From Eledone cirrhosa (lineage: Eukaryota), in contig OZ024759.1 in NCBI GenBank assembly GCA_964016885.1, positions 12,958,001-13,022,000 on the forward strand: a stretch of 64,000 nucleotides of DNA. The letters are read 5' to 3'. The first letter of the stretch is position 1; each line of letters starts with the position of its first letter. The position numbers and the translations under genes were made by a program. The notes beneath the pieces were generated by a model. It searched no databases. It was not told the DNA's origin and saw nothing but the letters and a program-made list of their open reading frames with translations. Positions 3,794 through 46,988 of the stretch are shown in pieces.

Positions 3794-4350
3794 CCCTTTA
3801 GCATTCACATTACTCTATATATACTATTGTATTTTCATGGTAAAGGCTTTACCTCCCATAATATCTCACATAACATTCACATTACTCTATATATACTATT
3901 GTATTTTCACAGTAAAGGCTTTACCTCCCATAATATCTCACATAACATTCACATTACTCTATATATACTATTGTATTTTCACAGTAAAGGCTTTACCTCC
4001 CATAATATCTCACATAACATTCACATTACTCTATATATATTATTGTATTTTCATGGTAAAGGCTTTACCTCCCATAATATCTCACATAACATTCACATTA
4101 CTCTATATATACTATTGTATTTTCACAGTAAAGGCTTTACCTCACATAATATCTCACATAACATTCACATTACTCTATATACACTATTGTATTTTCATGG
4201 TAAAGGCTTTACCTCACATAATATCGAATCTATGAGATTTTGAAAGTATTTTTTTTTAGAACAATACCTTAACATCAGTATGAGTGACCAGTTACAGCCA
4301 TTTCCAACAGAAAAAGGTAGAGGATTCTGGCCAGTTTGAACACTAAAGGG
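3794..4350 (+). mobile_element. piggyBac-type MITE, copy 1, with internal 72-bp tandem repeat (~6 copies)
   Basis: TTAA|CCCTTTAG...CTAAAGGG|TTAA (TTAA at 3790-3793 and 4351-4354). Confidence 0.88.
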
Positions 4351-6452: not shown

Positions 6453-6941
6453 GTATTTAAACCGGCTGATCTGGCCAAATTTCTCTCACTTCTTTCAGTT
6501 CAAACTGGCTGTAATTGGCTGCTCATACTGATGTTAAGGTATTGTTCTCAAAATAAATAATATCAAAATCTCATAGATTTGATAACATGTGAGGTAAAGC
6601 TTTTACCATGAAAATACAATAATATATATAGAGTAATGTAAATGTTATGTGAGATATTATGTGAGATAAAGCCTTCACCATGAAAATACAATAGTATATA
6701 TAGAGTAATGTAAATGTTATGTGAGATATTATGTGAGATAAAGCCTTCACCATGAAAATACAATAGTATATATAGAGTAATGTAAATGTTATGTGAGATA
6801 ATATGTGAAGTAAAGCCTTTACCATGAAAATACAATAGTAAATATAGAGTAATGTAAATGTTATGTAAGATATTTATGAGAAATAAAGCCTTTACTGTGA
6901 AAATACAATAGTAAATATAGAGTAATGTAATTGTTAAAGGG
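6453..6941 (-). mobile_element. piggyBac-type MITE, copy 2 (one end truncated), with 72-bp internal repeat
   Basis: AAAGGG|TTAA at 6936-6945; body is the reverse complement of copy 1. Confidence 0.82.
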
Positions 6942-7307
6942 TTAAAAATTCCTTCTTTTCTCTGTCCCACTAAACCCAGAGATCTTAAAAACTTTGATAG
7001 GGCTACTACTGCTCTTTCTTTTCTGACTAAAACAACAAAAATATAATCATGATAAATACCTTAAGCATTTGTTTTGGCTACAGCCTCAGGTTGACCAATG
7101 GCTTACAGGTAGAATTTAGCATGAAACTAATATATATCTTCATTGAATTTCACTGGCTGTTGTGTGTTTTTACTTTTCTCATACATTATATATATATATA
7201 TCAAGGCAGTGCTCCAGTATGGCCACAGTTTAATCATTGAAACCAGTAAAAGAATAACAACAAAACAAAAGAAAGAATCAAAATGTTATAATTGGTAAGT
7301 GACTTAC

Positions 7308-7397
7308 CTGAAGAGGGTCCTCAAGAACTCCACTGCAAATGGCACAGATCAATTCTTCATCAACATCCCCCTGAAATCTCACAACTTCGTAACCCAT
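7308..7397 (-). CDS. RNF41: First coding exon of E3 ubiquitin ligase RNF41/Nrdp1 (N-terminal half of RING domain); exon spans 7408->7308 including 11 nt of 5'UTR
   Basis: Translates to MGYEVVRFQGDVDEELICAICSGVLEDPLQ, very close to the recalled human N-terminus MGYDVTRFQGDVDEDLICPICSGVLEEPVQ. Canonical acceptor TTCCCTTTTTACCTTTCAG| (AG at 7410-7409) and donor CAG|GTAAGT (GT at 7307-7306), phase 0 after 90 coding nt. No downstream exon recognised in 1-7307, so the gene continues beyond the window start. Confidence 0.93.
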
Positions 7398-8543
7398 CTC
7401 TTCAAGGCCTGAAAGGTAAAAAGGGAACCACATTATTGTGAGGTAACCTATCTCTTTAAGACCTGAAAGGTAAAAAGGGAACCACATTATTGTGAGGCAA
7501 CCTATCTCTTTAAGGCCTGAAAGGTAAAAAGGGAACCACATTATTGTGAGGTAACCTATCTCTTCAAGGCCTGAAAGGTAAAAAGGGAACCACATTATTG
7601 TGAGGTAACCTATCTCTTTAAGGCCTGAAAGGTAAAAAGGGAACCACATTATTGTGAGGTAACCTATCTCTTTAAGACCTGAAAGGTAAAAAGGGAACCA
7701 CATTATTGTGAGGCAACCTATCTCTTTAAGGCCTGAAAGGTAAAAAGGGAACCACATTATTGTGAGGTAACCTATCTCTTTAAGGCCTGAAAGGTAAAAA
7801 GGGAACCACATTATTGTGAGGTAACCTATCTCTTTAAGGCCTGGAAGGTAAAAAGGGAACCACATTATTGTGAGGTAACCTATCTCTTTAAGGCCTGAAA
7901 GGTAAAAAGGGAACCACATTATTGTGAGGTAACCTATCTCTTCAAGGCCTGAAAGGTAAAAAGGGAACCACATTATTGTGAGGTAACCTATCTCTTTAAG
8001 GCCTGAAAGGTAAAAAGGGAACCACATTATTGTGAGGTAACCTATCTCTTTAAGGCCTGGAAGGTAAAAAGGGAACCACATTATTGTGAGGTAACCTATC
8101 TCTTTAAGGCCTGAAAGGTAAAAAGGGAACCACATTATTGTGAGGTAACCTATCTCTTTAAGGCCTGAAAGGTAAAAAGGGAACCACATTATTGTGAGGT
8201 AACCTATCTCTTTAAGGCCTGGAAGGTAAAAAGGGAACCACATTATTGTGAGGTAACCTATCTCTTTAAGGCCTGAAAGGTAAAAAGGGAACCACATTAT
8301 TGTGAGGTAACCTATCTCTTCAAGGCCTGAAAGGTAAAAAGGGAACCACATTATTGTGAGGTAACCTATCTCTTTAAGGCCTGAAAGGTAAAAAGGGAAC
8401 CACATTATTGTGAGGTAACCTATCTCTTTAAGGCCTGGAAGGTAAAAAGGGAACCACATTATTGTGAGGTAACCTATCTCTTCAAGGCCTGAAAGGTAAA
8501 AAGGGAACCACATTATTGTGAGGCAACCTATCTCTTTAAGGCC
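7391..8543 (-). repeat. 54-bp minisatellite (~21 copies) made of the RNF41 3' splice site region
   Basis: Minus-strand unit CTCACAATAATGTGGTTCCCTTTTTACCTTTCAG-GCCTTAAAGAGATAGGTTAC; CAG acceptors recur at 7409+54n up to 8489; gives the 411-aa ORF (MWFPFYLSGLKEIGYLTI)n fused in frame to RNF41. Confidence 0.97.
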
Positions 8544-8589
8544 AAGAAGAAGGAAGAAAGTCTAATAAAAAAGGTCTAAAGTCTGTCTC

Positions 8590-34330: not shown

Positions 34331-34363
34331 TTTTCAAAAAGATCAACAACTACTGAGAGATTT
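34331..34363 (-). other. Candidate 33-nt exon (possibly an RNF41 5'UTR exon)
   Basis: Minus strand TTTTTTTTGTATTTTTTTTTACCTCTTTTCCAG|AAATCTCTCAGTAGTTGTTGATCTTTTTGAAAA|GTAAGC; splice signals only, no transcript evidence. Confidence 0.35.
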
Positions 34364-40328: not shown

Positions 40329-42635
40329 CCCTTTACCATTTACATCACTCTATATATATACTATTATATTTTCATGGTAAAGGCTTTACCTCACATAACA
40401 TTTACATTACTCTATATATACTATTATATTTTCATGGTAAAGGCTTTACCTCACATAACATTTACATTACTCTATATATACTATTATATTTTCACAGTAA
40501 AGGCTTTACCTCACATAACATTTACATTACTCTATATATACTATTATATTTTCATGGTAAAGGCTTTACCTCACATAACATTTACATTACTCTATATATA
40601 CTATTATATTTTCATGGTAAAGGCTTTACCTCACATAACATTTACATTACTCTATATATACTATTATATTTTCATGGTAAAGGCTTTACCTCACATAACA
40701 TTTACATTACTCTATATATACTATTATATTTTCATGGTAAAGGCTTTACCTCACATAATATTTACATTACTCTATATATACTATTATATTTTCATGGTAA
40801 AGGCTTTACCTCACATAACATTTACATTACTCTATATATACTATTATATTTTCATGGTAAAGGCTTTACCTCACATAACATTTACATCACTCTATATATA
40901 CTATTATATTTTCATGGTAAAGGCTTTACCTCACATAACATTTACATTACTCTATATATACTATTATATTTTCATGGTAAAGGCTTTACCTCACATAACA
41001 TTTACATTACTCTATATATACTATTATATTTTCATGGTAAAGGCTTTACCTCACATAACATTTACATTACTCTATATATACTATTATATTTTCATGGTAA
41101 AGGCTTTACCTCACATAACATTTATATTACTCTATATATACTATTATATTTTCATGGTAAAGGCTTTACCTCACATAATATCTCACATAACATTTACATT
41201 ACTCTATATATACTATTGTATTTTCATGGTAAAGGCTTTACCCCACATATCTCACATAACATTTACATTACTCTATATATACTATTGTATTTTCATGGTA
41301 AAGGCTTTACCTCACATATCTCACATAACATTTACATTACTCTATATATACTATTGTATTTTCATGGTAAAGGCTTTACCTCACATATCTCACATAACAT
41401 TTACATTACTCTATATATACTATTGTATTTTCACAGTAAAGGCTTTACCTCACATAATATCTCACATAACATTTACATTACTCTATATATACTATTATAT
41501 TTTCATGGTAAAGGCTTTACCTCACATAACATTTACATTACTCTATATATACTATTATATTTTCATGGTAAAGGCTTTACCTCACATAACATTTACATTA
41601 CTCTATATATACTATTATATTTTCATGGTAAAAGCTTTACCTCACATAACATTTATATTACTCTATATATACTATTATATTTTCATGGTAAAGGCTTTAC
41701 CTCACATAATATCTCACATAACATTTACATTACTCTATATATACTATTATATTTTCATGGTAAAGGCTTTACCTCACATAATATCTCACATAACATTTAC
41801 ATTACTCTATATATACTATTATATTTTCATGGTAAAGGCTTTACCTCACATAATATCTCACATAACATTTACATTACTCTATATATACTATTGTATTTTC
41901 ATGGTAAAGGCTTTACCCCACATATCTCACATAACATTTACATTACTCTATATATACTATTGTATTTTCATGGTAAAGGCTTTACCTCACATATCTCACA
42001 TAACATTTACATTACTCTATATATACTATTGTATTTTCATGGTAAAGGCTTTACCTCACATATCTCACATAACATTTACATTACTCTATATATACTATTG
42101 TATTTTCACAGTAAAGGCTTTACCTCACATATCTCACATAACATTTACATTACGCTCTATTTACTATTGTATTTTCACAGTAAAGGCTTTACCTCACATA
42201 ATATCTCACATAACATTTACATTACTCTATATATACTATTGTATTTTCAGTGAAGGCTTTACCTCACATATCTCACATAACATTTACATTACTCTATATA
42301 TACTATTGTATTTTCACAGTAAAGGCTTTACCTCACATAATATCTCACATAACATTTACATTACTCTATATATACTATCGTATTTTCACAGTGAAGGCTT
42401 TACCTCACATAATATCTCACATAACATTTACATTACTCTATATATACTATTGTATTTTCACGGTAAATGCTTTACCTCATAATTATCTCACATAATAGCC
42501 AATCTATGAAATTTTAATATTATTTATTTTGAGAACAAAACCTTAACATCAGTATGAGTGGCTGGTTATGGCCAGTTTGAACAGAAAGAGGTGAGAGAAT
42601 TATGGCCGGATATGGCTGGTTTAAATGCTAAAGGG
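40329..42635 (+). mobile_element. piggyBac-type MITE, copy 3, inflated by a 60/69/72-bp internal array (~33 units)
   Basis: TTAA|CCCTTTACCATTTA ... TAAATGCTAAAGGG|TTAA. Confidence 0.9.
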
Positions 42636-45027: not shown

Positions 45028-46988
45028 CCCTTTAGCATTTAAACCGGCCATATCCGGCCGGAATTCTCTCGCCCTCTTTCTGTTCAAACCAGCTGTAACA
45101 GGTTTCTCATACTGATATTAAGGTATTGTTCTCAAAATAAATAATATCAAAATCTCATAGATTCGGAATGTGAGATATTACGTGAGATAAAGCCTTTAGG
45201 GTGACAATACAATAGTATATATAGAGTAATGTAAATGTTATGTGAGATATTATGTGAGGTAAAGCCTTTACTGTGACAATACAATAGTATATATAGAGTA
45301 ATGTAAATGTTTTGTGAGATATTATGTAAGGTAAAGCCTTTAGGGTGAAAATACAATAGTATATATAGAGTAATGTAAATGTTTTGTGAGATATTATGTA
45401 AGGTAAAGCCTTTACTGTGAAAATACAATAGTATATATAGAGTAATGTAAATGTTTTGTGAGATATTATGTAAGGTAAAGCCTTTACTGTGAAAATACAA
45501 TAGTATATATAGAGTAATGTAAATGTTTTGTGAGATATTATGTAAGGTAAAGCCTTTACTGTGAAAATACAATAGTATATATAGAGTAATGTAAATGTTT
45601 TGTGAGATATTATGTAAGGTAAAGCCTTTACTGTGAAAATACAATAGTATATATAGAGTAATGTAAATGTTTTGTGAGATATTATGTAAGGTAAAGCCTT
45701 TACTGTGAAAATACAATAGTATATATAGAGTAATGTAAATGTTTTGTGAGATATTATGTAAGGTAAAGCCTTTACTGTGAAAATACAATAGTATATATAG
45801 AGTAATGTAAATGTTTTGTGAGATATTATGTAAGGTAAAGCCTTTACTGTGAAAATACAATAGTATATATAGAGTAATGTAAATGTTATGTGAGATATTA
45901 TGTGAGGTAAAGCCTTTAGGGTGACAATACAATAGTATATATAGAGCAATGTAAATGTTATGTGAGATATTATGTGAGGTAAAGCCTTTAGGGTGACAAT
46001 ACAATAGTATATATAGAGCAATGTAAATGTTATGTGAGATATTATGTGAGGTAAAGCCTTTAGGGTGACAATACAATAGTATATATAGAGTAATGTAAAT
46101 GTTATGTGAGATATTATGTGAGGTGAAGTCTTTACTGTGACAATACAATAGTATATATAGAGTAATGTAAATGTTATGCGAGATATTATGTGAGGTGAAG
46201 TCTTTACTGTGACAATACAATAGTATATATAGAGTAATGTAAATGTTATGTGAGATATTATGTGAGGTGAAGTCTTTACTGTGAAAATATAATAGTTTTG
46301 TTTACTCGAGAGAAGACTACGTTGGTATGGCCACGTGATACGCATGAAAGACGACAGCTGTATAAAAAAGTGCAGGGCGATAAAAATAAACAGTAGCCAC
46401 GGAGTAGGTAGACCCGGAAAAACCTGGGACGACTTGCTAAATTCCGACCTCACACACTTACACCTCTCCAAGACAATGTCACTGGACCGAGATCTTTGGC
46501 GCTACACAGTAATACAGAAGACCCGCCTTGCCTAAGTACAAAGCGAAACCTACAGTCAGTGGGCACCTCTAACAAAAATACACGCCCGCCCCATCTACAC
46601 CACCCCTTTCGATGTAAAGTTATGTTGGTACCACAACAACCAGGCCGAAATAAATGAGGTCGTGTAGGTGTCACAAAAAAAAAAAACACACAGTCCAAGC
46701 TGTAATGTGGCCGTGTAGGCAACACGGTAAAAACCTCCCAGCCCCACACTGTAAACGTGGTTGGTGCTAGGAAGGGCATCCAGCCGTAGAAAACCCGCCA
46801 GACAGTCCTATATGAGCAAGACAACCAATCTTGCCTCAAGTGGGAAAACTCCCGTCCAAACCCATGCAAGCATGGAAGATGGACGTTAAACGATGATGAT
46901 GATATAGAGTAATGTAAATGTTATGTGAGGTAAAGCCTTTACCATGAAAATATAACAGGAAATATAGAGTAATGTAAATGCTAAAGGG
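45028..46988 (-). mobile_element. piggyBac-type MITE, copy 4, with 72-bp array and a nested RTE 3' fragment (+, ~46298-46903)
   Basis: 14-bp TIR CCCTTTAGCATTTA at both ends, TTAA at 45024-45027 and 46989-46992. Confidence 0.9.

Follow-up and report, generated by a model that had tools for sequence, protein, structure and literature searches.

A 54-bp minisatellite across the first coding acceptor of an octopod RNF41 gene repeats the 3′ splice site 21 times, and the observed transcript enters the copy beside the exon

In the stretch of octopod DNA analysed here (64,000 nucleotides, called the window), the boundary between an intron and the first coding exon of RNF41 is part of a 54-bp minisatellite in which the 3′ splice site occurs 21 times. 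The array is a real, probably young, acceptor-side example of the repeats known from amphioxus as mirages, and its host gene contains four such arrays. In the reading that best explains it, to which we give a probability of about 0.85, the array is a minisatellite of the intron/exon boundary, the messenger RNA uses the last copy and the other 20 acceptors are silent passengers of a neutral expansion. The first-pass annotation of this DNA had offered a choice between 20 silent decoys and a control of isoform choice tuned by copy number. The decoys are favoured: the sole spliced contig enters the exon-adjacent acceptor, and no contig of the same run lies on the repeat unit.

By profile and homologue comparisons, the host gene is a single-copy, intact octopod RNF41 (NRDP1). 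Six collinear coding exons were traced with a full-length relative protein on the minus strand of contig C20 of genome G000, and they combine an N-terminal RING exon and a C-terminal USP8_interact domain in one gene. The latter domain (PF08941) is matched at just two sites of the genome, both located on this strand of the contig about 140 kb downstream. The coding exons are open and nearly residue-for-residue equal to NRDP1 of Octopus bimaculoides, which is among the nearest named proteins with those of O. sinensis, Argonauta and Sepia; compared with RNF41/NRDP1 RING E3 ligases, the domains are the same and the protein has no visible difference. The gene spans more than 170 kb, with introns full of repeats. 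A consensus donor located one base past the stop codon (L015, near 1497, minus strand) suggests an extra exon in the 3′ UTR. The protein begins MGYEVV, and its start is encoded as follows:

7308..7408, minus strand: first coding exon of RNF41, with 11 nt of 5′ UTR, the ATG at 7397-7395 and residues 1–30, placed by the sequence and a spliced contig
at 7307, minus strand: donor GTAAGT of the first coding exon

The array overlaps the beginning of this exon and extends into the preceding intron, with these elements:

7389..8543, minus strand: 54-bp minisatellite, 21.4 copies (TRF, 97% matches)
7409..7442, minus strand: authentic 3′ splice site, with a branch-like CTCAC (A at 7439), a pyrimidine tract and a CAG ending at 7409, used in the spliced contig
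7463..8522, minus strand: 20 upstream acceptor copies, last intron base from 7463 to 8489, with ATA replacing ATG in the copy of the exon start; their use was not seen
7431..7433, minus strand: in-frame AUG of the exon-nearest unit, repeated every 54 nt and intronic in the observed mRNA
8543..8560, minus strand: unique 5′ flank of the array, linked to the unit by a DNA contig of run X2; a pyrimidine tract that closes with TG in place of AG stands right ahead of the first half-unit

Each unit, arranged head-to-tail, is made up of 34 nt of intron end and 20 nt of exon start, and thus spans a boundary that the spliced contig confirms. The 21 acceptors follow each other on the minus strand at an exact spacing of 54 nt (last intron base 7409+54n), with CAG in 21 of 21 and a branch-like A 31 nt ahead of every junction, so that the complete acceptor per unit described in the first-pass annotation is there in all its parts. 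The 20-mer that includes both the branch-like motif and the AUG of the unit is present 21 times without mismatch, where 0.01 occurrences are expected. Only four of the 54 columns vary, three of them non-synonymously (K/E, Y/C, S/P), and the mean pairwise identity is 98%; six unit types are present in recurring runs along the array, a homogenisation that is a sign of tandem-repeat turnover. The sequence GAGATGG follows the last acceptor only, the copies reading GAGATAG, which bears out the statement that the authentic ATG stands after the last copy alone. One of the six frames is free of stops and runs into MGYEVV. It contains the unit AUG, which has an A at -3, and it stays in phase with RNF41, 54 being divisible by three, as had been noted earlier; the arithmetic derived from this, an exon of 101+54n nt and an extension of 12+18(n-1) amino acids, holds. 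At the far end of the array, the tract at 8543–8560 is strong and one letter short of a good acceptor, while the first half-unit behind it is exon-like; this arrangement may be due to chance, to a past deletion or to an older acceptor that is no longer functional.

Evidence on the acceptor used comes from run X1, which bears the same species label, is not on record as RNA and has no recorded tissue, its splicing being evident from its contig. This contig of 1620 nt (depth 37.3) covers the first coding exon exactly. At one end it continues into the beginning of the next coding exon, which shows that it is spliced; the other end maps once in the window, at 34331–34353, which is the end of a small exon:

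34331..34363, minus strand: 33-nt 5′ UTR exon, flanked by canonical AG and GT, spliced to 7408, with an in-frame stop and no ATG

The intron from 34331 to 7408 is 26,922 nt long, is of the GT-AG type and ends at the last acceptor. Since the 33-nt exon carries an in-frame stop and lacks an ATG, translation starts at 7397 in the observed form. As far as one contig of one run can tell, for the dominant form, the regular mRNA thus uses the exon-adjacent site. The annotation had named the sole use of this acceptor as what would refute its proposal, and in this one library the dominant form uses 7408 only; no second acceptor is seen in the contigs of the run. X1 has no contig on the array unit and its depth over 7414–7480 is 0, in a single run whose contigs show presence rather than absence. 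Since RNA is represented by one contig only, a filter can omit records and rare forms are lost when contigs are assembled, some minor use of the upstream acceptors, rare or tissue-specific, may take place.

The array can be accounted for by a short series of events. A 54-bp segment across the boundary would have been duplicated, and an early copy would have changed its ATG to ATA. Expansion and homogenisation, by slippage or unequal exchange, would have followed, as the recurring runs of unit types suggest. The 21 acceptors score equally with a rough matrix and are all alike on the intron side; the choice between them would therefore be positional. Exon definition would select the acceptor whose neighbours are a purine-rich exon body and, 101 nt downstream, the strong donor at 7307. 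GAAG-type sequences are splicing enhancers, and GAAG occurs three times in the 101 nt of the exon versus four times in the 1134 nt of the array. The copies and their AUGs would be removed with the intron, so that their frame would not be selected.

The conserved features of the array can be explained by chance. The probability that four variable columns all miss the CAG is 0.79. When the unit is shuffled, a given frame stays open in 36% of cases. Among the 31 arrays of the window, which cover 38% of its DNA, 13 have a period divisible by three and 12 have a stop-free frame. Therefore no selection is needed; selection on the CAG was rejected, and so was the open frame as evidence of selection. 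The earlier remark that the CAG is kept despite other substitutions and that the frame is open remains correct as an observation, and loses its weight as support. What does count against the neutral reading is that the unit keeps its frame together with an AUG with A at -3, an open frame with a Met in most units being present in only three of the 31 arrays. Two further candidates were discarded. Folding of the RNA to hide the decoys has a z-score of -1.03, with 16 of 100 shuffles folding as well, and the best donor-like GT inside the unit, which might have delimited micro-exons, scores -1.3 with a rough matrix that gives the real donor 9.0.

Four of the 13 splice sites of RNF41 are spanned by arrays, two of them acceptors and two donors, with periods of 54, 67, 32 and 19 bp, of which one in four keeps the frame. 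The three further arrays have 9–29 copies, most of which keep AG or GT; their periods of 67, 32 and 19 bp would break the frame, and the gene is intact. They are:

one of the pair L011:902-1502 and L011:1812-2113: 67-bp array, 8.8 copies, copying the donor after residue 130 (exon of residues 31–130)
L018:1591-2384 and L018:986-1525, minus strand: 32-bp acceptor array of 24.9 copies and 19-bp donor array of 28.6 copies, respectively, flanking the exon of residues 176–201

The exon of residues 176–201 consists of 80 nt between its two arrays, and TAG ends 24 of the 25 copies of the acceptor array. In the same L011 pair, a 35-bp array of 8.7 copies repeats the pyrimidine tract of the exon of residues 31–130 and stops about 11 nt before the AG. 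One 60/72-bp repeat family recurs in separate arrays (window 3802–4225, 6587–6936, 40337–42495 and 45168–46296; L016 and L018) and, unlike the locus-specific arrays, is scattered over many sites within the gene and around it.

The leading alternative, which draws on this number of boundary arrays, is that the array is just as silent, while its placement is not due to chance: splice sites would be favoured seeds or anchors, for example because the exon-adjacent copy cannot be lost. Besides the 54-bp array, three of 12 RNF41 sites are spanned, which exceeds the local background of 5–7% (binomial P 0.02–0.05) and counts against the neutral reading; placement purely by chance may be too simple. 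In the plausible splice sites of myosin and chaperonin genes, arrays of at least three copies are found at 0 of 174 and arrays of about two copies at 2 of 174 (Fisher P 0.0002 for three of 12 against 0 of 174). Rough matrices were used to predict the boundaries of these sites, which derive from 70 myosin matches (of 72) and 30 chaperonin matches (of 47); as 26 of the 200 edges offered no plausible site, 174 were kept. A further 30 kinase loci served only to train the codon model. However, this comparison is confounded, since the comparison genes are located in repeat-poor DNA: arrays cover 4% of the surroundings of 60 exons of myosin and chaperonin genes, and 46% around the exons of RNF41. The amphioxus mirages also cluster at boundaries. 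Against a favoured placement, none of the 24 boundaries of 12 predicted neighbouring exons in the same region is spanned, and pooling with 16 boundaries of exons, which are predicted only, none of them spanned, gives three of 28 (P 0.16–0.31). A bias towards splice sites is possible, and we regard this alternative as rather unlikely.

The region as a whole is rich in minisatellites. Array cover is 30% in the 200 kb next to RNF41, 25–72% in four samples at 11.5–13.3 Mb of contig C20 and at most 14% in 13 of 16 other samples of this contig. The arrays at 11.5–13.3 Mb, a stretch to which the window belongs, are built from unrelated local sequence, and some contain pieces that we take to resemble LINE or SINE fragments. 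The predicted neighbouring gene, on the plus strand at 12.63–12.70 Mb (L174–L180), is EF-hand-like and has about nine predicted exons, with one weak Pfam EF-hand hit below the cut-off; in all, two of 49 candidates have such weak hits, and a search for homologues, made for one exon, found none. At L190, two near-identical stretches of opposite orientation (7584–7663, minus strand, and 7892–7980, plus strand) each contain a 75-bp array of 3.4 copies that ends at an acceptor-like site; they are probably an inverted repeat rather than exons. Outside this region, two myosin exons (L039 and L103) have duplications of about two copies over predicted donors (24 bp, 2.4 copies, and 51 bp, 2.0 copies), which may be starting points for arrays of this type.

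Far less probable is the switch tuned by copy number that the first-pass annotation had put forward, taken here to mean that upstream acceptors are used in some tissues and yield Nrdp1 with 12+18(n-1) extra hydrophobic residues at its amino-terminus, or that they tune translation from the true start. The period divisible by three, the frame open into RNF41, the AUG and full acceptor in every unit, the equal scores of the 21 acceptors and the invisibility of rare forms in contigs are all compatible with it. However, no positive evidence was obtained: the sole spliced contig joins 7408, and the repeat peptide is found in 0 of 128 fetched homologues, 60 of the 66 with MGY starting there. The three non-synonymous columns out of four do not point to coding constraint, and the other boundary arrays of the gene have periods that would break the frame. 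A coding role of the repeat peptide was also rejected on its own account, as it has no Pfam match over the cut-off and a hydropathy maximum of 1.59 over 19 residues.

The array is also missing from a relative (X10), which differs by 15 letters in 132. The relative has an AG at the same acceptor position, preceded by 242 nt of unbroken contig, the first 30 nt of which are unlike the unit. From this comparison the array is likely to be young and lineage-specific, and an extension shared with this relative is lacking. The gene model of Sepia has IGIEE before the Met, which would fit the same 11-nt leader. Joining the two preceding alternatives, so that splice sites are preferred seeds (four in RNF41) and the in-frame array leaks, depending on tissue, into a ladder of Nrdp1 forms with 18-residue repeats that tracks copy number, gives a reading that we hold to be very improbable as well.

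Mis-assembly, which would have created the array or inflated its copy number, can practically be dismissed: short units of such similarity are known to cause it and DNA-like run X2 may be the sample behind the assembly, but the X2 depth agrees with the assembled k-mer counts to about 10% for five unit variants, both unique flanks are joined to the unit in X2 contigs, and the units carry ordered variants. The unique flanks have depths of 6.87 and 5.77 and the five unit contigs depths of 29, 97.5, 109.6, 61.9 and 23, while the k-mer counts of the assembly predict 31.6, 104.9, 113.8, 65.3 and about 25 (the last two contigs were paired with their variants by mismatch count). Expressed as copy numbers, depth gives 4.6, 15.4 and 17.3 versus 5, 16.6 and 18 from the assembly k-mers. 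The array is therefore real, and the X2 depths fit about 21 copies; as X2 is possibly the source sample, this match is a test of the assembly and does not bear on polymorphism. Listed for the species were one whole-genome sample and otherwise RAD-seq runs.

As a silent minisatellite, the array extends the mirage repeats to an octopod, with four of them in one gene, and makes octopod RNF41 a natural test bed for how the spliceosome chooses when about 20 sites are nearly identical. Gene finders may misread the open repeat frame as a 400-residue amino-terminus. The finding would gain in importance if the use of upstream acceptors scaled with copy number, or if splice sites, in a count over the genome that is matched for density, proved to be preferred starting points of repeat growth.

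The closest known relatives are the amphioxus mirages. In the globin genes and Adh3, the 3′ end of an intron and the 5′ portion of the following exon are tandemly duplicated in units of 10–72 bp, splice signals are kept, length is unstable and splicing is regular (PMC3087553); the mirages of troponin C and PGBD5 behave likewise, with splicing undisturbed (PMC3902484). The unit of the octopod array is made up as in BflGb6 and its copies keep the splice signals; as in amphioxus, both acceptor and donor boundaries are affected and a normal mRNA is made. BflGb6 has 3–6 copies of 81–100% identity, compared with 21 copies of 98% identity in the octopod array, which is in a mollusc and the exon part of which holds a start codon lost in the copies, with a unit size within the range of Adh3. 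No report of a mirage in a cephalopod was found in the literature searched, in which few subscription papers are covered. In humans, the 844ins68 allele of CBS duplicates an intron/exon junction, the distal copy being strongly favoured and the extra piece removed, and a 31-bp VNTR of the same gene, c.1444_1467+7(16_21), spans an exon/intron boundary in 16–21 copies (PMC2630376). The former amounts to one extra copy and the latter is on the donor side, while the octopod array has 21 copies on the acceptor side. The 37-bp VNTR in intron 7 of human F7 also spans a boundary, with 5–9 identical donors of which only the exon-adjacent one is used; in a study of 50 constructs, pseudo-sites work once the real donor is lost (PMC1557585). 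The F7 repeat is a donor-side counterpart tested in constructs; the octopod array is on the acceptor side.
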